A stretch of DNA of 37,267 nucleotides, taken from positions 1-37,267 of the IMG/VR virus record IMGVR_UViG_3300048577_000041. The stretch is one strand, 5' to 3'. The notes under the pieces were generated by a model that was not told the origin of the DNA, did not search any database, and worked only from the letters and a program-made list of their open reading frames with translations. The position numbers and the translations under genes were made by a program. Origin of the DNA: a virus (lineage: Duplodnaviria > Caudoviricetes). Below, in pieces: positions 1 through 14,730 of this stretch. Numbering within the stretch: the first letter of the stretch is position 1; every line of letters starts with the position of its first letter.

Positions 1-329
1 TCGGGGACCGTGTCTGGGCCGGTGTCGGGGACGGTGTCCGGGCCGGTGTCTGGGCCGGTGTCGGGGACGGTGTCGGGGACGGTGTCGGGGACGGTGTCCG
101 GGACGGTGTCCGGGCCGGTGCCTGGGCCGGTGTCGGGGACGGTGTCCGGGACGGTGTCTGGGACGGTGTCGGGGCCGGTGTCTGGGCCGGTGCCTGGGCC
201 GGTGTCGGGGACGGTGTCCGGGACGGTGTCTGGGACGGTGTCGGGGCCGGTGTCGGGGACGGTGTCCGGGACGGTGTCTGGGACGGTGTCGGGGCCGGTG
301 TCTGGGCCGGTGTCGGGGACGGTGCCCGG
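1..329 (+). repeat. 12-bp tandem coding repeat GGTGTC(T/C/G)GGG(A/C)C, about 27 units
   Basis: Directly visible. It encodes G-V-[G/R/W]-[D/A] units. Confidence 0.95.
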
Positions 330-1070
330 GAGATCCTTGCCCAGTATCCCGAGCAGATGCATGGGCCGATCCTGGCCGGCCTTCGTCGCGCCGCTCGCGA
401 GGTGTGGAGTTCGTTCCGGGGCGGCAATCTCTGGGCTGGCGACTACGCGTGGATTCAGTGGTTCCGGACTGTCGGTCACCTCGAGCTGGCCGGCGATCTG
501 TGGGACCGGCACGACGCAGATGTGAGGCTCGCGGCGGCCGGCCCGCAGTTCTGGTACCGGGCCGGCGATCGGTGCGTGGTGGCCGTCTCGGATCGTCCGG
601 TGCAGATCAGCCGCGACCCGCTGGGCCGCAGCCACAGCGACACTGGCCCGGCCGCCTCGTGGGCGGACGGCTGGCGATTCAACACCTGGCACGGCACCAC
701 CGTGCCGCCCGACTTCTACGGCTGGGACGTGGCTCGCGCACTGGCCGAGAAGAACTCCGAGGTGCGCCGGTGCGCGATCGAGCGGCTCGGCTGGGACACC
801 GTCACCGACCGGATGCGGCTCGTCGCGACCGCGGACGATCCGGGCAATCCGAGCCAGGTCCTGGCCCTGTACGACCTGGACACGCTGGCCGGCCTGTACG
901 ACGCGGACGCCCGGATCTTGCTCGTCTCCAACGCGTCGCTCGACAAGGGCGGCCACCGGCGCCGGTTCGGCCTGCCGGTCCCCGGTCACCACACAGACCC
1001 GGTCGCCGCGGCCGCCGAACTCTTCAACGTGCCTGCTCACACCTACCGGCAGCTCGCCCGAGCTTGCTGA
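3..1070 (+). CDS. DUF6745-like phage protein with N-terminal tetrapeptide repeats (5' partial)
   Basis: Frame 3 is open from the window start into the 357..1070 ORF. It reads [16 protein letters not shown]...[16 protein letters not shown]. The C-terminal [23 protein letters not shown]...WHG...[16 protein letters not shown] resembles DUF6745. Confidence 0.75.
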
Positions 1071-6370: not shown

Positions 6371-7113
6371 TGGCCGACAGACGCTACTACGCGAAGCTCG
6401 ATGTCGGGTACCTCGGGAACCCGAAGATTGCCCCACTGCTGGAGAAGCACCCGCGGGCTGTGCTGCTGCACTCGTGGGGCATTCTCTACTCGAAACAGCA
6501 CGGCACCGACGGTGTGATCCCGTTCCGGCTGGGCATGCGAGAGCTATGGATAGACCGATGCTCCAAGCAATGCGGTATGCAATGCGAGTCGCAATGCGAC
6601 CTCGGAATGCTCGTGCAGAACGGCCTGTTCGAGGTGTTGGACGACGCGCAAGCGGTGGTGCATGACTACCTCGAACACCAAGACTCGTCTGAAACAATCA
6701 AAAAGGCATCTGACAAGGCCAGACGGGCCGCTGAAGCCCGCTGGGACAAGGCCCGCAACGATGCTCCAAGCACTGCACCTAGCACTGCATTGAGCAATGC
6801 AGGTAGCAATGCCAAGGAGAGGAGAGGAGAGGACAACTCTGGGCCGCGTAAGCGCGGCACCCGGATCCCCGACGACTTCGAGGTCACCGACCAGATGCGA
6901 AGATGGGCGGCGGAGAACGCGTCGAACGTCGACCCCGACCGGGAGACTGCCAACTTCGTCGACTTCTGGTCGGGCAAGGCCGGCCAAGCCGCAACCAAGG
7001 TGGACTGGCCGGCCACGTGGCGAAAGTGGATGCGCACCGCGTCCGATCGCACTCCCACATGGAGACGCCCACCCTCCACCCAGCCCGACCCGGACGGGTG
7101 GATGAATGCCTGA
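6370..7113 (+). CDS. phage replication initiator protein
   Basis: ATG at 6370. N-terminal HTH-like region (HDYLEHQ). C-terminal RGTRIPDDF...FVDFW..K......KVDW.ATWRKWMR. Lies upstream of the helicase and carries internal repeats. Confidence 0.8.
   Translation: MADRRYYAKLDVGYLGNPKIAPLLEKHPRAVLLHSWGILYSKQHGTDGVIPFRLGMRELWIDRCSKQCGMQCESQCDLGMLVQNGLFEVLDDAQAVVHDYLEHQDSSETIKKASDKARRAAEARWDKARNDAPSTAPSTALSNAGSNAKERRGEDNSGPRKRGTRIPDDFEVTDQMRRWAAENASNVDPDRETANFVDFWSGKAGQAATKVDWPATWRKWMRTASDRTPTWRRPPSTQPDPDGWMNA
6556..6833. repeat. iteron-like repeats, candidate replication origin
   Basis: GCAATGCG x3 at 12-bp period (6567, 6579, 6591). GCA(C/A)TGC x4 at 12-bp period (6770, 6782, 6794, 6806). Each cluster begins with CGATGCTCCAAGCA, and a purine tract follows. 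Confidence 0.7.
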
Positions 7114-8326
7114 CCTGCTGAACCCCGAGGCGGCCGAGCTGGCGGTGCTCCACGCCGCGTTCACCGATCCCCAGTGGACCCAGGTGCTGAAGCTGCGCGA
7201 ACAGGACTTCTACGATCCAGCCCGCGGCGCGTTGTGGCGGTGCCTGGCCGACATGTCCGTCCGGGAAGTCACCCCCGACCCGGGCACGGTGATCGACCAC
7301 CTCGGCCTGACCGGCCACCGGGCGGGGATCATGTCGCAACTACTGGTCGCGGTCGCCACGGATCCGTCAGTGCCGGCGAACGCCGAAACCCACGCGCTGA
7401 CTGTGGCCGACCGGGCGACCCGCCGGGCGCTGCTGGCCTCCACCGAGGGCGCGAGGCAACGTCTGCACGACCTTTCGGTTCCCGTCGATGCGGCCGTCGC
7501 GTTCGTCGAACAGTCCCTGATCGGTGCAGCGTCTGGCCAGGACCGCGAGGCTGACCAGCTGTGGACCTATGAAGAGTTCGTTCACCAGGAGCTTCCTCCC
7601 GAAGAGTGGGTCATCCCTTCGCTGCTGGCCCGCGAAGACCGGCTGGTGCTGACCGGGACCGAAGGTGCCGGCAAGACCACGCTGCAGCGCACGATCGCGG
7701 TCATGGCCGCTTCCGGCCTGCACCCGTTCACGCTGCAGACGATGGAACCCCGCCGGGTGCTGGTGGTCGACCTGGAGAACCCGAACCGGATCATGGTGAA
7801 GCGGTTCCAAGAGTTGGGGGCGATCGCGGAGCGCCGCGGCCACCACCCGAAGCTGTTGAACATCCGTCGGATGCCGCAGGGCATGGACTTGTCGCGGCCC
7901 GACGAACGGATCCGGCTGCGCTACATGTGCCAGGCGACCCAGCCGGAACTGCTGGTGATCGGACCGGCGTACAAGATGGTCCGCACTCACGCCAACGAGG
8001 GTTTCGAGGAGTCGGTCGCACATATCGCCGAGGCCCTGGACGCGTTGCGTGAGGAGTTCCGGTTCGCGTTGCTGCTCGAGCATCACATTCCGAAGGGTGA
8101 GCAGGGTCGGGATCGTGGCGTGGCGCCGATCGGCTCGTCGTTCTGGCTCCGGTGGCCCGAGTTCGGTGTCGGTCTCAAGCTCGACCCGGATTCCACCTTC
8201 CACGACCGTCGCGCCGAGCTCGTGCACTGGCGGGGCGCCCGCGACGACCGGCCTTGGCCGAAGCACCTCGAGTCGGGTGGGCCCGGCTCTCTTCCCTGGA
8301 TCGACAGACAGTCCCTAGCAGCCTGA
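7106..8326 (+). CDS. replicative helicase (DnaB-like N-terminal domain plus AAA_25/RepA-type ATPase)
   Basis: Walker [23 protein letters not shown] and DnaB-N-like AELAVL...DFYDP. Confidence 0.85.
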
Positions 8327-8336
8327 GGAGGCACAC

Positions 8337-8801
8337 ATGTCCGGAGAGACGATCATCACGGTCTGCGGCAACCTGACCGCAGACCCAGAACTCAGATTCA
8401 CGCCTGCTGGTGCGCCGGTGGCGAACTTCACCGTCGCCTCCACGCCACGCACCTTCGACCGCCAGAGCGGCGAGTGGAAGGACGGCGACGCCATGTTCCT
8501 CAACTGCGCGGTCTGGCGCCAGGCGGCCGAGAACGTGGCCGAATCCCTCACCAAGGGGATGCGGGTCATCGTCCAGGGCCGGTTGCGCTCGCGCAGCTAC
8601 GAGACCCGGGAAGGTGAGAAGCGCACCGTCTTCGAGGTGGAGGTCGAGGAGGTCGGTCCGTCGCTCAGATCGGTGACGGCGAAGGTGGCCAGAGTCCAGT
8701 CCCCGCAGCAGGGGGCGGGCTGGTCGAAGGACTCCCGTGCTGACGCGAACACCGGACGGGACCCGTGGGCGACCGCATCCGACGACACTCCGCCGTTCTG
8801 A
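8337..8801 (+). CDS. ssb: single-stranded DNA-binding protein
   Basis: Actinobacterial SSB sequence [25 protein letters not shown] with a C-terminal DDTPPF. Confidence 0.97.
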
Positions 8802-8820: not shown

Positions 8821-9408
8821 GTGTACATCACCCGCATCGTGCTGACCTCGAAGGGACAGCGCCAAGCCCGGGATATCCGGGCAATCCACCAGACCGTCGG
8901 GTACTTGACCGACGCGTCCACCGGCCGTGTCCTGTGGTGCCTACCGCGGCGTGACCTGCTCATCGTGCAGGCCGACCATCCGTGCGACGTGCGGCTCACG
9001 CCCGGTCTGGCGGTGTCGTCGGCGCATGCCGAGGTGTGCACCGACTGGGCGGCCGGGCAGCGGGTCCTCGTGTCCTTGATCGCCGTCCCGGAGGTGGCGG
9101 TCAGCAGGCCGGGCCGGCAGCGCAGCGTCCGTCGCCCGCTGACCGTCGATGACTGGCCGGGCTGGCTGGAACGCAGGCTCGCCGGCGCTCTCACACTGGA
9201 CGACATCCAGGTGGAGCCGATGGGGGCGCGGATCGGACGCAAGGCCGGGACGCGGATCATCGTCGACTGGGTCGGGTATGCCGCAGCCGGGACCGTCATG
9301 GACCCCGCAACCCTCGCAGCGCTCCAGCGTGACGGGGTCGGTCCGCACAAGGCATACGGTGCTGGGCTCCTGCTGGTCACCACCGACAGCAAAGCGCGGG
9401 CGGCATGA
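8821..9408 (+). CDS. cas6e: Cas6e/CasE-like CRISPR RNA-processing RAMP
   Basis: MYITRIVL start, early His (IHQTV), RVLW...LLIVQ, WLERR, and the C-terminal G-loop GVGPHKAYGAGLL typical of type I-E Cas6. Confidence 0.82.
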   Translation: MYITRIVLTSKGQRQARDIRAIHQTVGYLTDASTGRVLWCLPRRDLLIVQADHPCDVRLTPGLAVSSAHAEVCTDWAAGQRVLVSLIAVPEVAVSRPGRQRSVRRPLTVDDWPGWLERRLAGALTLDDIQVEPMGARIGRKAGTRIIVDWVGYAAAGTVMDPATLAALQRDGVGPHKAYGAGLLLVTTDSKARAA

Positions 9409-10109
9409 CCGCCCCCACCAGCCTCGTCTGGGACCTCGCCGGGAGGCCGGGGCCAGCCAAGCCGCTGGAAGACGTGCCAGGCTGGTGCGCCATCTCTGGC
9501 GAGTGGTGCGAGCGGACCGCCGACGTGACCAAGTCGCTCGGTTCGAACTTCACCGACCGCCGCTGCTTTGCTCGCGACGACTCGACGAGGGTAGGGCCGG
9601 GGGCGCTGTGGGCTTTGACCGGACGCGGCCTCCAGACCCTGCGCATGTGGACGATCATCGCCGGCGCCGACTCCGGCCCGTCCCACGAGAAGGCGTGGCT
9701 CGGAAGCCGTCCCGGTCTGACTCTGCTGAACCGGGCGAACCCGATGCCGGTCCACCGGCTGCTGTCCGACCCGCCCGAGACGGAATGGCTGCTGTCGGTG
9801 GCCGTCTCCGGCCAGAAGCACGTCCTGCCCTACGCCCAGGTCAACAGCGGGCGCTCATGGACGGTGCGGATGGAGACCACCGACATCACCGCCACCTCCG
9901 ACCAGTGGGCCCACGTCCACACCCACACCCTCGCGCTGCGCAGACTCGGCGTCCCTGCCGACGCCATCCCGCAGCGGGAGCCGCGCTACATCAAGACCAG
10001 CGAAGCGCTCGCTCAGTGGCGCGAGCACGACCTGGCTCTCACCGGCTGGCACACCAGCCCGCTACTCGACCTCGCACTGTGGACCATCACGAAGGAGACC
10101 ATGCAATGA
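9405..10109 (+). CDS. csf1: type IV Csf1 (Cas8-like large subunit)
   Basis: Position in the operon. Motifs C...G, SNFTD, LL.DPP...W...VA.SGQKHVLPYA.VN and LRRLGV resemble IV-B Csf1. Confidence 0.72.
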   Translation: MTAPTSLVWDLAGRPGPAKPLEDVPGWCAISGEWCERTADVTKSLGSNFTDRRCFARDDSTRVGPGALWALTGRGLQTLRMWTIIAGADSGPSHEKAWLGSRPGLTLLNRANPMPVHRLLSDPPETEWLLSVAVSGQKHVLPYAQVNSGRSWTVRMETTDITATSDQWAHVHTHTLALRRLGVPADAIPQREPRYIKTSEALAQWREHDLALTGWHTSPLLDLALWTITKETMQ

Positions 10110-10477
10110 CACCCGAGACCCTGGACAGGCTCACCATCGACCTGATCTTCGCGCTCCGCGACAGCCTCACCGACCTGTCCCCGATCGACTTCTGGTCGGG
10201 CCGGCTCAAGACGGCTCTCGACACGGCCGCCGCCGGCTCATCACGGGCCGGGGAGGCCCTGACCACCGCCGCACGCAAACTCCAGATCGACATCATCACC
10301 GCCAAGCCGGCCCCGGTAGCGGTCGCCACCTGCGCCGCGATCGATGCCGACTACCCGGCATGGGCATCCCACATCTCCCGGAACTCCACCTACATCGTCG
10401 CGCTCGCCTACGCCGAGCGCGACCTCCACTCCCGCGCCCGGAAGGACCCCAGCAATGACCAGCAGCCCACGTTCTGA
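10106..10477 (+). CDS. cas11: type IV-B small subunit (Cas11-like)
   Basis: 123-aa helical protein between csf1 and csf2. AAGGAG RBS, ATGA overlap, and FWSGRL...ARKLQI. Confidence 0.65.
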   Translation: MTPETLDRLTIDLIFALRDSLTDLSPIDFWSGRLKTALDTAAAGSSRAGEALTTAARKLQIDIITAKPAPVAVATCAAIDADYPAWASHISRNSTYIVALAYAERDLHSRARKDPSNDQQPTF

Positions 10478-11342
10478 CATCACCCCGGAGGCCACCGTGA
10501 CCATCACATACACCGCGACCCTGACCAGCCCGCTGCACCACGGAGCCGGAACCGCCGGCAACACCAGCCTGCTCCGCACCCAGGAGGTTGTGCAGCCCGA
10601 CGGGACGGTAGCTGCACTGCCGTTCCTGTCGGCCGCCTCGATCCGGCACGCGCTCCGCGACCGGATCGCGTGGCACATCGCCCGCATCCTCGACATCGAG
10701 CCGGGCAGTCTCACCAAGCAGGCGGTCGATCTGCTCTGGTCGGGCGGGGCGGTCACCTCGACCGGTGCTGAGACCGACCTCGACCTCTATCGCAGGGTGG
10801 ATGACCTGCTGCCGTCCCTGACCCTGTTCGGGTACGCAGCAAGGGCGGACATCACCGAGGGCATCCTGCGGGCGTCTGACGCCATCCTGGTGTGCGCCGA
10901 GAACAGCTTCCGGCTTCCTGCCGGGCTGCCGCAGCTCGACCAGCGGGCAGCCGTGTTCCGGGGGGAGGAGTTCGGCACCCGCCACGACGTGGCCGACTCC
11001 CCTGTCGCCCGACTGGTGCAGGCCGCCGACACCCTGATCGGCGCACCAAAGACGACCCAGATGATCTTCGACCTTCAGGTACTCAAGCCGGGCGCGGTGC
11101 TGCACGGCGACATCACCCTCACCCCTGCCGCCACCGGCCAGCACCGCATGGTCCTCGGCGCGGCTCTGGCCCTGTGGGCTCCCGACGGTGAGGCGATGCT
11201 CGGAGCGAAGACCGCGACCGGGTACGGCCGGGCCCGCATCGACGGCCTGCCCGACACCGCCGAGGACCTGGGACGCTGGACCGAGCACCTGCTCGCCCAC
11301 CGGGACAACATCCTCGCCCTGGTCGCCGAGGTAGCGGGATGA
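10455..11342 (+). CDS. csf2: type IV Csf2 (Cas7-like backbone RAMP)
   Basis: LTSPLHHGAGTAGNTSLLR, PFLSAASIRHALRD, LWSGG, P.LTLFG, QMIF..QVL.PG and G-loop GAKTATGYG. An alternative start is GTG 10497 after GGAGG. Confidence 0.88.
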   Translation: MTSSPRSDITPEATVTITYTATLTSPLHHGAGTAGNTSLLRTQEVVQPDGTVAALPFLSAASIRHALRDRIAWHIARILDIEPGSLTKQAVDLLWSGGAVTSTGAETDLDLYRRVDDLLPSLTLFGYAARADITEGILRASDAILVCAENSFRLPAGLPQLDQRAAVFRGEEFGTRHDVADSPVARLVQAADTLIGAPKTTQMIFDLQVLKPGAVLHGDITLTPAATGQHRMVLGAALALWAPDGEAMLGAKTATGYGRARIDGLPDTAEDLGRWTEHLLAHRDNILALVAEVAG

Positions 11343-11935
11343 GCACCCCGCTGCTGGTGACGGCCCGGCTCGACACCCCTAGTGTCGGGCTGGACCGCCA
11401 CCCCCTGATGCTGGACGGTCCCCTGTCATGGGCGTACGCGATGCACGCCCTCGCACACAACCTGCCGCTGGAGCGTGTCACCAAGCTGTACGCGCCGGAC
11501 CTGCCGCTGCCGCTGGACCGGTGGGAGCAGGACGGCACCTGGGGATGGTGCACATCCCGAGCCCGGTTCACGGTGGAGGCGTACACGGCCATCCAGATAC
11601 GCCGTAAGCCCGCCACCCAGGCGATGGCCCGCTACAGCCCCGACCGCAAGCACCATGCGGGGCTGGGCCCGATGAAAGCCCGCGACACCACACTCCAGGC
11701 TGCATGGATCCGCCGCATCGAATGGGACGTGCTCGCCACCGACCCGACCGAGCTTGCCGCGCTGCTGCAGCACATCACCCACATGGGCGAGCGGCACCGC
11801 AACGGACTCGGGCACGTCACGAAATGGACGATCGCGCCCTCGCACCAGCCGGACGCGTGGCGGGACCGGCCCATGCCCGGCGACGGGCAGCCGATGCGCG
11901 CCCCCTACTGGCATCCGTCACGGAGGGTCGCGTGA
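11339..11935 (+). CDS. csf3: type IV Csf3 (Cas5-like RAMP)
   Basis: PLLVTARL, LDGPLSWA, LPLDRW...W.W..S, ITHMG.RHRNGLGHV.KW and RAPYWH. Confidence 0.85.
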   Translation: MSTPLLVTARLDTPSVGLDRHPLMLDGPLSWAYAMHALAHNLPLERVTKLYAPDLPLPLDRWEQDGTWGWCTSRARFTVEAYTAIQIRRKPATQAMARYSPDRKHHAGLGPMKARDTTLQAAWIRRIEWDVLATDPTELAALLQHITHMGERHRNGLGHVTKWTIAPSHQPDAWRDRPMPGDGQPMRAPYWHPSRRVA

Positions 11936-12144
11936 GCATCGAGCAGGCGATCTGGGATTGGCTGCCCGCCCGCGCAGACCGGCGCCGCACCACCGTCCCC
12001 CCGGTGATCGCAGCGAACCTCGGCCTCGAACCGCGCGCCGTGGCCGAGGCGCTGCACCGCATGGAAGCGGGCGGGCACGCCTTCCAGTCCCGCCGCGGCT
12101 CGTGGCACCGCGGCATCCCACTCCCCAAGGAGGACACATGCTGA
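11932..12144 (+). CDS. small winged-helix DNA-binding protein
   Basis: GTGA overlap. IAANLGLEPRAVAEALHRMEAGG..FQSRRGSW fits a wHTH pattern. Confidence 0.6.
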   Translation: MSIEQAIWDWLPARADRRRTTVPPVIAANLGLEPRAVAEALHRMEAGGHAFQSRRGSWHRGIPLPKEDTC

Positions 12145-12881
12145 TCGACTCGCCCCGGCTCACCCCGGCCGACCGGCAGGCGTGGGCGGCACTCGAACGC
12201 TACGACACCGCCCTCGCCGCCCTGCCGTCCTGGCCAGCCAAAGAGCAGCACGCCCAGCAGGTCATCCGCGACTTCGCCGCCGGCGGACCTTGCTACGCCT
12301 CCACCTCGTGGGGCAAGGACTCCACCTGTATGGCCCACCTGGTCGCCACCAGCGGAGTGGTGCTGCCGGTGGTGTATGTGCGGATGCGGCGCTGGGAGAA
12401 CCCCGACTGCCTCACCGTCCGGGACCAGTTCCTCGACCGCTACGGCGACCAGGTCGACTACCACGAATACTGGGTCGACGGTGGTCCCCGCTGGTGGGAC
12501 GGCCCCGACCAGACGACCCTGAAGTCAGGCTCGCACGTCGGAAGCCAGTTCGCCGAGGCCGAGCGCCATCACGGCACCCGACACATCTCCGGCGTCCGAG
12601 GCGACGAGTCCCGGATGCGGCAGATGGCGATGGGGCGGTGGGGCGAAGCAGGCCCGTCAGCGTGCCGCCCGATCGGCCGCTGGAGAGCTACCGACGTGTA
12701 CGCCTACCTGCACCGCCACGACCTGCCCGTCCATTCCGCCTACGCCATGAGTTTCGGTGGCCACCTCGACCGGCAATGGCTCCGCGTCTCACCCATCGGC
12801 GGCATCACCCAGGCCCACAAGCAGCGCGCGGACTGGGAAGCGGCCTACTACCCAGACATCGTCCGACAGGAGCAGCCGTGA
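12138..12881 (+). CDS. cysH: CysH/PAPS-reductase-family protein of type IV-B locus
   Basis: AAGGAGG RBS. PP-loop STSWGKDS, ISGVRGDES..R and PIGRW...DVYAYL..HDLP. Location matches IV-B loci. Confidence 0.85.
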   Translation: MLIDSPRLTPADRQAWAALERYDTALAALPSWPAKEQHAQQVIRDFAAGGPCYASTSWGKDSTCMAHLVATSGVVLPVVYVRMRRWENPDCLTVRDQFLDRYGDQVDYHEYWVDGGPRWWDGPDQTTLKSGSHVGSQFAEAERHHGTRHISGVRGDESRMRQMAMGRWGEAGPSACRPIGRWRATDVYAYLHRHDLPVHSAYAMSFGGHLDRQWLRVSPIGGITQAHKQRADWEAAYYPDIVRQEQP

Positions 12882-13891
12882 CGGATTTCCTGGACCCCAA
12901 GCGGCGCGACCGGCTCAAGCGGTGGCTCGACACCCTGCCCGAACTGGCCGCGCTCGCCCAGGTGGTCGCCGACACCCTGCTGCCCCGCCGCGGCGGCCAC
13001 GGTGGCAGCCGCCCCCACCCCGGATCCAGACCGCCCGTGAGCCTCGGGCTGATCGACACCCTCGATGCCCGCCCGAAACGGCAAGGCCGCTACGCCGGGT
13101 CCGGGGCGGACACGATCGCCACCTCCGGCGACGACATGGCCGACGCGGTGCAGCTCGAGACATGGGCGGCCCGCCAGCAGGGCAAGGACACCCACAACGT
13201 GGACGGCAAGCCCCCCGCCTGGTCACGCGACACCGACGAGGTGCTGCGGCTGTCTGTCGACGCCAAAGGCGCCCGGGAGGGCATCCTGCGCAACCTGGGC
13301 GACTGGGTCCGGATCTGCGTCGAGGAGATGGACGAAGCCCTCGCCGCCCACACCGAACCGGCGGGCAAGCGGGACGTGTGGGTGGTCGACTCTCGTGGCG
13401 ACTGCTGGGCCGGGTTCGTGGAGACCGCCACCATCACCACCGAGGCTGGCTGGCTGTCGATGCACCTGGACTGGATCGCTCAGCAGCAATGGTCCGACGA
13501 GCTCGCCGAGGATGTCCACCGGATGCACCGCGACCTCAAGCGCATCATCGGCGAGGGCAGGCCCGAGTACCGGCCGCTGTGCACCGGCTGCTCCACCGAC
13601 ATCCGCCGCCAGCGGATGCGGGACGAGGGCGCCTACTTCACCTGCCCCAACTGCGGCCGGCAGGTACGCGACGGCCAGATGGACCACCGGCAGGCGCTCG
13701 CCACCGAGCAGCCGATGGACTCCCAGAGCTTCGGCTGGGCCGGAGTGTCCTCCGAGCGCATCCGCAAATGGGTGGAGCGCGGCGAACTGGGGCCCGCCCT
13801 GGATGAGCAGGGGCAGGTGATGAAGCGCGGCAAGCGTCATCTCTACCACCCGCTCGACGTGCTTAGGGTTCGCGACGAGATGGGCGCGTGA
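12878..13891 (+). CDS. putative late-gene regulator (zinc ribbon plus C-terminal HTH)
   Basis: CTGC...CPNCG and VSSERIRKWVERGEL...LY...DV. It is the last gene before the packaging module. Confidence 0.6.
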   Translation: MTDFLDPKRRDRLKRWLDTLPELAALAQVVADTLLPRRGGHGGSRPHPGSRPPVSLGLIDTLDARPKRQGRYAGSGADTIATSGDDMADAVQLETWAARQQGKDTHNVDGKPPAWSRDTDEVLRLSVDAKGAREGILRNLGDWVRICVEEMDEALAAHTEPAGKRDVWVVDSRGDCWAGFVETATITTEAGWLSMHLDWIAQQQWSDELAEDVHRMHRDLKRIIGEGRPEYRPLCTGCSTDIRRQRMRDEGAYFTCPNCGRQVRDGQMDHRQALATEQPMDSQSFGWAGVSSERIRKWVERGELGPALDEQGQVMKRGKRHLYHPLDVLRVRDEMGA

Positions 13892-13930
13892 CTTGTCCGG
13901 AACCTACAACAGATCGGCGGCGCCATGCCG

Positions 13931-13936
13931 TACACT
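13931..13936 (+). promoter_or_regulatory. possible -10 element (TACACT) of a late/ncRNA promoter
   Basis: TANNNT hexamer just downstream of the putative late regulator. No clear -35. Confidence 0.3.
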
Positions 13937-14124
13937 GACGGTGATGGTTGGTGGTTCTCCCCAACTGTGACAATCGGCACATGTGGCATGCCCAGAGTCC
14001 ACCCGTTGAGGCCAGTGGCTTCCGCCATTGAGCCCCGAATCAGCGGCCACCCCAAAAGTTCGGATACCCGTGAGGTCGTGGGCGCGGGAGAGCCTGACGG
14101 CAGCTCCGTCGAGATGATCGGGTA

Positions 14125-14153
14125 GCGGCTTTCGCGCTAGCGCGGGTGAGCCG
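14125..14153 (+). CRISPR. solitary or degenerate type I-E-like CRISPR repeat
   Basis: 29-nt GCGGCTTTCGCGCTAGCGCGGGTGAGCCG has a central palindrome and a 3' GTGAGCCG handle, like actinobacterial I-E repeats. A partial second copy GCGCGGGAGAGCCT lies at 14082-14095. Confidence 0.45.
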
Positions 14154-14172
14154 TCCGGGACTTGCGACCAAA

Positions 14173-14255
14173 GGTAGGCGTCCGGCAGGTCGAGGACATC
14201 GCCCCGAAAGCGACTGGCGGGCAACCGCTCCAGAGTTCGAGTCTCTGGCCTACCG
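14173..14255 (+). tRNA. tRNA-Ser(CGA)-like, atypical
   Basis: Acceptor GGTAGGC/GCCTACC plus G73. Anticodon arm TCGC-CCCGAAA-GCGA. Long variable arm GCGG-GCAA-CCGC. T arm CAGAG-TTCGAGT-CTCTG. It has C33 instead of U33 and no encoded CCA. Confidence 0.75.
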
Positions 14256-14299
14256 CATGAACACCCGACCCTCTCCCGCCCACCGCGCCGGCCCCAGGC

Positions 14300-14372
14300 T
14301 TGACGACATCTCATCGGGTAGAGCGGCTGCCTAGTAAGCAGCGGGTGCGGGGTTCGAGTCCTCGTCGGTCCT
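14300..14372 (+). tRNA. tRNA-Thr(AGT)-like, degenerate acceptor stem (possible pseudo-tRNA)
   Basis: D arm CTC-ATCGGGTA-GAG. Anticodon arm GCTGC-CTAGTAA-GCAGC. T arm CGGGG-TTCGAGT-CCTCG. The acceptor stem is only partly paired. Confidence 0.6.
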
Positions 14373-14478
14373 CCCCGTCCTCGCCGCTGCAGCTACCGCA
14401 CCACACACCACTCAGGGCCAACGGCCGGCCCACCATTGAGGACGGGCGGGATCGCCGGCGGCGAGGACAGGCAAAAGC

Positions 14479-14730
14479 TCAGCGGCGGCGGAACACCGGG
14501 TACGCCTGAGGATTCCCCTTCTGGTCGGTCGATCCGGCCCACTGGATCAACACCCACCCCTCACGCTCCACGGCCTCGATCATCGCCGACCAGTCCGGGA
14601 TCTCACCCGACAGGCCCATCGTGAACGTCGGCGTGTTCAGCAGCGCAGCGAAGATGTACTGGTCACCAGCGTGCGCGGCGCGAGCCTGAGCAGCCAGCTT
14701 GTCAGCCTTGGCGTTACGGACCATTCCCAT
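14479..14730 (-). CDS. hypothetical protein (reverse-strand moron-like gene)
   Basis: 83-aa ORF MGMVRNAKADKLAAQA...WSAMIEAVEREGWVL.QW...AYPVFRRR with protein-like composition. Confidence 0.6.
   Translation of the reverse strand: MGMVRNAKADKLAAQARAAHAGDQYIFAALLNTPTFTMGLSGEIPDWSAMIEAVEREGWVLIQWAGSTDQKGNPQAYPVFRRR

Follow-up and report, generated by a model that had tools for sequence, protein, structure and literature searches.

What does a complete type IV-B CRISPR-Cas effector do in a phage that offers it no array? The window analyzed here, which is an entire linear virus record (IMGVR_UViG_3300048577_000041; 37,267 bp; ~78% complete), carries a seven-gene module at positions 8821-12881, and this module is a type IV-B variant carrying a Cas6e. 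The balance of the evidence tips modestly towards the module being a multi-protein anti-CRISPR that processes and captures the CRISPR RNAs (crRNAs) of a host type I-E system. Sequestration of host crRNAs was one of four functions offered in an earlier note on this DNA, and it now gains specific genomic support: hosts of related prophages are enriched for type I-E systems, and most of those examined have spacers that perfectly match the prophage region bearing the module.

The seven genes lie where the earlier note placed them, all on the + strand and beginning 19 bp after ssb. Successive genes overlap by 4, 4, 23, 4, 4 and 7 nt and the last overlaps the downstream regulator by 4 nt, an arrangement that suggests a single transcription unit, translationally coupled between ssb and the regulator. 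The first gene (8821..9408, 195 aa) encodes a Cas6e-like endoribonuclease that matches PF08798 above its cut-off (E 2.8e-18) and the structure of T. thermophilus Cse3 (E 5e-4). The second, csf1 (9405..10109, 234 aa), encodes the Cas8-like large subunit; it has no profile match in Pfam, NCBIfam and PHROGs scans or when its sequence profile is compared with the Protein Data Bank (PDB), and it is assigned from its predicted fold, the model (pLDDT 95) matching the type IV-A Csf1 chains 8rc3_G (E 9.9e-6, TM 0.55) and 7xg1_A (E 2.4e-5) in Foldseek with probability 1.00. The zinc-finger cysteines of Csf1 are partly lost in the window copy: C28 is invariant, and position 31 is Ser where 16 of 26 sequences have Cys. 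The all-helical protein encoded between csf1 and csf2 (10106..10477, 123 aa) is the putative small subunit Cas11, assigned from position and predicted fold; it has no profile match, no match of its sequence profile in the PDB and no significant Foldseek match, and the best VIA match of its model is the IV-B Cas11 7jhy_h (Z 11.1, root-mean-square deviation 2.5, 108 aligned; next Z 6.1), a score in the range below Z 13 in which helical bundles may match by chance. The Cas7 backbone gene csf2 (10455..11342, 295 aa), an earlier call of which stands with its start corrected to 10455, matches IV-B Csf2 7jhy_e (E 3e-10) and, below cut-off, TIGR03115 (E 1.3e-4); in the alignment, the Csm3-like aspartate D42 of Mycobacterium sp. 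JS623 Csf2 falls on a glycine that is invariant in this clade. Next, csf3 (11339..11935, 198 aa), which encodes Cas5, is recognized from alignment and a TIGR03116 match below the curated cut-off (E 2.4e-16), a small winged-helix protein (11932..12144, 70 aa) in a variable slot has only a weak match to HTH_29 (E 0.008), and the last gene (12138..12881, 247 aa) encodes a CysH-like PP-loop protein (PF01507, E 3.3e-10; phosphoadenosine phosphosulfate (PAPS) reductase 2o8v, E 3e-9).

Profiles or folds thus support six cas-type genes, and the identification as type IV-B was right, csf1, cas11, csf2, csf3 and the cysH-like gene all being present. Typical IV-B systems lack Cas6, and the module is therefore filed as a IV-B variant; the earlier note listed the cas6e-like gene and missed that it is the part unusual for IV-B. 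The window scans revealed no DinG or RecD helicase and no array that would indicate type IV-A or IV-D. As had been claimed, a canonical array, cas1/cas2 and DinG are absent from the window, in scans of 45 proteins against PHROGs and 11 against Pfam and NCBIfam among the 278 open reading frames of the incomplete record.

Is the module peculiar to this phage? We gathered relatives of Csf2 from 21 and 25 viral loci, 11 species genomes and 49 metagenome loci. Each of the 32 other loci (26 of them distinct) keeps the order cas6-csf1-csf2-csf3, and the gene upstream of the cassette differs widely among them. What had been suggested to be an adoption by this phage is thus a cassette conserved throughout a clade of prophages and set beside many different genes. 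The 46 cas6-bearing rows (38 clusters at 90%) form one branch of the Csf2 tree in two quick trees (SH-aLRT 91 and 82), the second of which mostly excluded rows of unknown cas6 status; the trees are compatible with a single cas6-bearing branch without establishing it. Loci that lack Cas6 (L053, L054, three plasmids and Skermania phage SPI1) fall outside it. Likewise, a quick tree places the 46 Cas6 proteins of the phages on a branch separate from 10 Cas6e proteins of hosts (SH-aLRT 99), evidence against recent capture having happened repeatedly. His23 of Cas6e, which we take from the Cas6e literature to be the catalytic histidine, is present in 22 of 23 aligned rows and the four glycines of the G-rich loop in 23 of 23. 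The SPI1 gene before csf1, orf39, has no Pfam match and no match to the Cas6 profile built here. At two loci (L016 729-1781 and L033 7719-8795) the Cas6 frame continues into a long Cys-rich, zinc-ribbon-like C-terminal region.

Because no phage-side substrate was found for this I-E-type Cas6, we examined the hosts for type I-E. Type I-E Cas7 (PF09344) is present in 12 of 13 carrier genomes, namely 10 of 11 species genomes together with G177 and G636, against a background of 118/301 in Corynebacterium, 35/151 in Propionibacteriaceae and 30/301 class-wide (10-39%). At the highest background (39%) the enrichment has a binomial p of 1e-4, computed with no phylogenetic correction on samples that include incomplete genomes; all 5 carriers in the Corynebacterium sample have I-E (p 0.009). 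Eight carriers possess full-length cas3-cas8e-cas11-cas7-cas5-cas6. When folded, the repeats of the hosts share one 7-bp stem.

The spacers of these hosts carry the argument further. Spacers were taken from the arrays in the stretches examined rather than from every array per genome, and were matched to 55-80 kb around the module in each prophage (10.8 kb in G001, 20.9 kb in G011 and two regions in G636). Perfect matches to the resident module-bearing prophage region were found in 11 of 12 carriers, for 77 of 737 spacers: G001 0/26, G002 19/97, G003 3/42, G004 2/49, G005 3/28, G006 16/73, G007 2/82, G008 1/14, G009 1/29, G011 1/25, G177 16/108 and G636 13/164. No spacer perfectly matched the prophage of another host. 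A protospacer adjacent motif (PAM) of the form A[AG][CGT] or GA[CG] flanks 73 of the 77 matches, a count to be discounted somewhat, the motif set having been chosen after a first look at the matches. The eight hosts with intact cas genes all have perfect self-targets with a proper PAM (58 perfect matches among 531 spacers, 56 with a PAM), and self-targeting beside intact cas genes, one mark of a type I-E anti-CRISPR, is thus present in 8 of 8 fully sequenced intact hosts, all of them hosts of relatives of the window phage. When the whole G002 genome was searched, each of the 30 matches outside the array fell within C1:1065535-1107948, a 42-kb stretch around the module; the module itself contains 2 of the 19 perfect targets. 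G636, which was found after the hypothesis was set, fits it: Cas7e is present, 13 spacers match the prophage regions perfectly, and 12 of these belong to the first 21 in the array. It contains two module-bearing regions (C1:2094838-2098181 and C3:226007-229354), and 12 of the 13 perfect self-targets are on C1. This concentration of self-targeting spacers at one end of the array may reflect continued acquisition in the lysogen, which would favor a block at the target; the spacers may also predate integration. Only the module genes are common to all 11 carrier prophage regions compared, with ssb in 8 and a methyltransferase in 5. In G177 (L122-L125), the targeted region begins ~10 kb from the host I-E Cas7 and the PAMs are mostly GAC, not AAC or AAG.

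How unusual is such self-targeting? The controls come from a set of 20 complete, I-E-positive, module-negative Corynebacterium genomes; genome-wide searches covered 10 of these and passed over one that has 11 spacers and the remaining 9. Perfect self-targets occurred for 6 of 782 spacers in 3 of the 10 genomes (G026, three; G085, two; G283, one), and carriers differ from controls by genome at p 0.005; the control counts may be low, since four of the searches scored the best 40 of 43-83 candidates. For comparison, published figures put self-targeting at 19% of genomes with CRISPR and at 0.8% of spacers (PMC7708048). The self-targeted, prophage-like regions without a module in G026 (L229-L232, C1:2106863-2169611) and G085 (L233-L234) are candidates for the discovery of new AcrIE proteins.

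We propose that the phage Cas6e would cut host I-E pre-crRNA at its hairpin repeats and that the cut guides would be passed to Csf3, Csf2, Cas11 and Csf1, leaving Cascade starved of guides or out-competed at its targets. That this Cas6 is of the I-E family and has kept its motifs, with no phage-side repeat found for it, supports such a capture of host guides, as does the ability of CRISPR-associated transposons to load host crRNAs through Cas6, described in PMC11656645. The nuclease-free complex may also occupy protospacers without recruiting Cas3: many host guides match the phage, so the loaded complex could sit on them, and the Csf1 fold is that of a PAM-reading IV-A subunit as PMC11519345 presents it, which allows target masking. 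The partial loss of the Csf1 zinc ligands points more to a sponge, and a Csf2 backbone that lacks the Csm3-like aspartate makes cutting unlikely. Finally, the CysH-like protein may add an ATP-dependent modification to some substrate, assisted in many relatives by a DNA methyltransferase, and the helix-turn-helix (HTH) protein may limit expression of the module.

Several observations weigh against the capture of host crRNAs. Tolerance of self-targeting in lysogens requires expression in lysogeny, and the window module sits in a replication-type operon that better fits lytic expression. The Cas6-less IV-B complex of JS623 did not enrich a co-expressed I-E crRNA in the account of PMC7937560, and IV-B overall is reported to correlate negatively with other CRISPR systems (PMC7038947). 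Carrier G010 has neither Cas7e nor an I-E array. The self-targets of three further carriers say little, since cas3 contains an assembly gap in G006 and is split in G011, and the I-E system of G007 is broken, with cas3, cas8e and cas11 missing from the stretch examined. Self-targets are also tolerated in module-less regions, in G026 (three perfect and PAM-proper, beside intact cas genes) and G085 (one PAM-proper), which implies other inhibitors in these hosts that carriers may encode too, and the controls were unmatched for prophage carriage. The window is matched by no spacer among the 737 and its host was not found in the genomes searched, so that relatives with 45-64% Csf2 identity have to carry the case. 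Sequestration alone also fails to explain why CysH is retained.

What chemistry might CysH bring? The protein has a PP-type SWGKDS motif and invariant R154, E157, S158 and R161, together with C176 in a CRP motif (22/22). Its alignment has no conserved C-terminal Cys, the catalytic residue of a true PAPS reductase, an absence also described for CasCysH in PMC8175902, and the residue pattern fits the ATP alpha-hydrolase proposed there. Three cysH-like genes surround the module of the Cas6-less locus L053, and two lie in tandem in L071. The slot between csf3 and cysH holds a winged HTH, an XRE HTH, a D12 adenine methyltransferase or an N6/N4 methyltransferase. Among 32 loci (38 clusters less two in which no cysH was seen and four that were too short), a methyltransferase of one of two unrelated families (PF02086, PF01555) occupies the slot in 12 and directly follows cysH in 6, making 18 loci; 12 loci have an HTH of either kind, whether in the slot or following cysH. 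In the window the slot holds the winged HTH, possibly an autoregulator like the anti-CRISPR-associated (Aca) proteins if the analogy that we assume is apt, and a different methyltransferase lies 4.8 kb upstream. The earlier suggestion of CysH-like chemistry on a nucleic acid gains indirect support from the adjacent methyltransferases of relatives. One form of it would be RNA-guided self-shielding, in which host crRNAs lead the complex to PAM-flanked phage sites that CysH, with the optional methyltransferase, masks or marks; we consider this possible but unlikely. If it were true, host immune memory would serve as a map of the phage sites that need protection, and the module would be both a CRISPR effector for programmable DNA modification and an anti-CRISPR of a novel kind. 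Alternatively, CysH, often with the methyltransferase, could mark phage DNA against restriction or PAM recognition independently of any guide, the Csf filament acting as a scaffold on non-specific RNA. The adjacent methyltransferases, set against 3 matches in 425 kb of flank elsewhere, speak for this, as does the heterogeneous RNA bound by the JS623 complex according to PMC7937560; but the profiles were derived from slot enzymes and favor adjacent matches, 14 of the 32 loci, the window included, have no adjacent methyltransferase, and the conserved I-E-type Cas6 is left unexplained, so that guide-independent modification seems to us rather improbable.

The I-E enrichment and the kept Cas6e would also be accounted for if the borrowed host crRNAs were used in offence, silencing competing phages and plasmids in the manner of type IV-A while separate, ordinary anti-CRISPR proteins cover the self-targeting. 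Csf1 shares the fold of the DNA-binding IV-A Csf1, and module-less prophages do tolerate self-targeting; but 10% of the available guides perfectly match the carrier, which would make the complex silence the phage that encodes it, DinG is missing, and no non-module gene is common to the 11 prophages, though unrelated anti-CRISPR proteins need not be shared. We regard offence as rather doubtful. Could the guide instead be a small RNA of the phage, cut by Cas6e and directing regulation of phage or host genes? Cas6e is intact, ~22% of the genome is missing from the record, and a structured non-coding tract lies at 13892-14600. That tract holds tRNA-like genes and is common to a related phage without the module, L227, and the link to host I-E would be unpredicted. 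In the window, repeat searches and scans for mini-arrays and solitary repeats gave neither a CRISPR array nor a solitary repeat or I-E repeat core; no I-E-like solitary repeat occurs in 19 prophage stretches, a mini-array scan of loci other than L029-L033 found none, Rfam scans gave no phage-encoded guide, and neither blastn of the window against 26 loci nor an all-against-all comparison found a conserved non-coding RNA within ~8 kb. RNA-guided repression by a phage-encoded guide, another function the earlier note had offered, therefore finds no support, and we hold a phage small RNA to be distinctly unlikely. Three-copy palindromes in L005, L012 and L015, which resemble replication-origin iterons, and iteron-like repeats at window 6544-6812, inside the replication initiator gene, were set aside. 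Finally, the block might be an assembly chimera or a decayed remnant, given the partly lost Csf1 zinc ligands and the lack of an independent contig spanning both junctions (two small-share sequencing runs did not span the stretch). The seamless overlaps, the intact gene order in 38 clusters and in all 32 other loci, a third-codon-position GC content of 0.86-0.90 like that of the adjoining phage genes, and an identical Csf2 protein recorded on 6 contigs, the largest of 608,930 bp, make this very improbable.

The phage itself is probably a temperate actinobacterial siphophage. Its late region encodes terminase, portal, protease, capsid, tape measure and holin (PHROGs scan), the presence of Csf2 on the 608,930-bp contig suggests an integrated form, and the named relatives, all Actinomycetota, point to an actinobacterial host. 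That host was not found among 331 Propionibacteriaceae genomes, for each of which the best two candidates were scored, a search based on the helicase gave no close phage relatives, and among 338 Actinomycetaceae genomes only G005 is a carrier. The replication region consists of the initiator, a DnaB-like helicase near the module (DnaB-N/AAA_25, 7106-8326) and ssb on its left flank (8337..8801, +; PF00436, E 2e-31). On the right flank, a Zn-ribbon/HTH phage regulator (12878..13891, +) is also found in L227, which is 98.95% identical in nucleotide sequence over window 12868-14011 and has no module gene within 8 kb upstream of the regulator; this places the right border of the module near 12868. 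Downstream lie a 160-nt structured non-coding segment (14012-14171; -66 kcal/mol, with no shuffle control) that is absent from L227, a tRNA-Ser(CGA)-like element with a long variable arm (14173-14254, +) that folds as a cloverleaf, escapes both ARAGORN and Rfam and recurs in L227 with 100% identity, and a tRNA-Thr with anticodon AGT (14296-14375, +; Rfam 24.3 bits, below the gathering score), largely common to L227 at 98%. An A34 anticodon is unusual in bacteria. A tract of 12-nt tandem repeats (window 1-330, 21 overlapping family members) lies in the gene truncated by the record start, and in L019 a comparable tract precedes a homologue of that gene.

What IV-B does has been an open question ever since the type was described. 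It is still listed as uncharacterized in a review of 2024 (PMC11656645), and natural RNA is absent from the one IV-B structural study. The clade described here supplies a candidate RNA in host I-E crRNA, a processing enzyme in its own Cas6e, and natural self-targeted lysogens with intact I-E. Earlier papers (PMC7038947, PMC8175902) already report that IV-B occurs in prophages of actinobacteria, note 12 exceptions that have Cas6 and raise the idea of a crRNA sponge, there judged unlikely, and Supplementary Data S1 of PMC7038947 may list members of the clade; a full-text literature search, with subscription reviews outside its scope, found no Cas6e-bearing IV-B clade tied to host I-E, self-targeting or methyltransferases. 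If the capture of host crRNAs is true, a whole Cas effector has been turned into an anti-CRISPR, possibly an RNA-guided DNA-modifying tool.

How does the module compare with known systems? Like the IV-B systems of Mycobacterium sp. JS623 (PDB 7JHY), Rhodococcus plasmids and Skermania phage SPI1, it combines csf1-cas11-csf2-csf3 with a cysH-like gene, lacks an array and adaptation genes, and resides on a mobile element of Actinobacteria. Unlike typical IV-B, it has cas6e as the first gene of the operon, its Csf2 is ~29% identical to plasmid IV-B Csf2, with the Csm3-like Asp replaced by Gly throughout its clade, and its clade's hosts are enriched for I-E, which runs counter to the negative correlation with CRISPR systems reported for IV-B overall. 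The Fuxivirus IV-B system (PMC10848311) is similarly virus-borne, with CysH, a proposed counter-defence role and a host spacer against its cas7; it differs in being archaeal and in having a mini-array, and the main text of PMC10848311 makes no mention of cas6. The Csf1 fold is shared with types IV-A1 and IV-A3 (PDB 8RC3, 7XG1), and IV-A3, as PMC7038947 and PMC11656645 describe it, has likewise acquired a Cas6e and relies on the I-E system of its host. Unlike IV-A1 and IV-A3, the window module has neither DinG nor an array of its own, and it has Cas11 and CysH. Phage decoy RNAs, the RNA anti-CRISPRs, reportedly disable host type I immunity. The cas-derived AcrIB3 and AcrIB4 described in bioRxiv 2023.06.24.545427 are likewise phage CRISPR parts that disable host type I immunity; where these are single decoy subunits and the RNA anti-CRISPRs are decoy RNAs, the window module would be a whole alternative effector that captures host guides with a maturase of its own.

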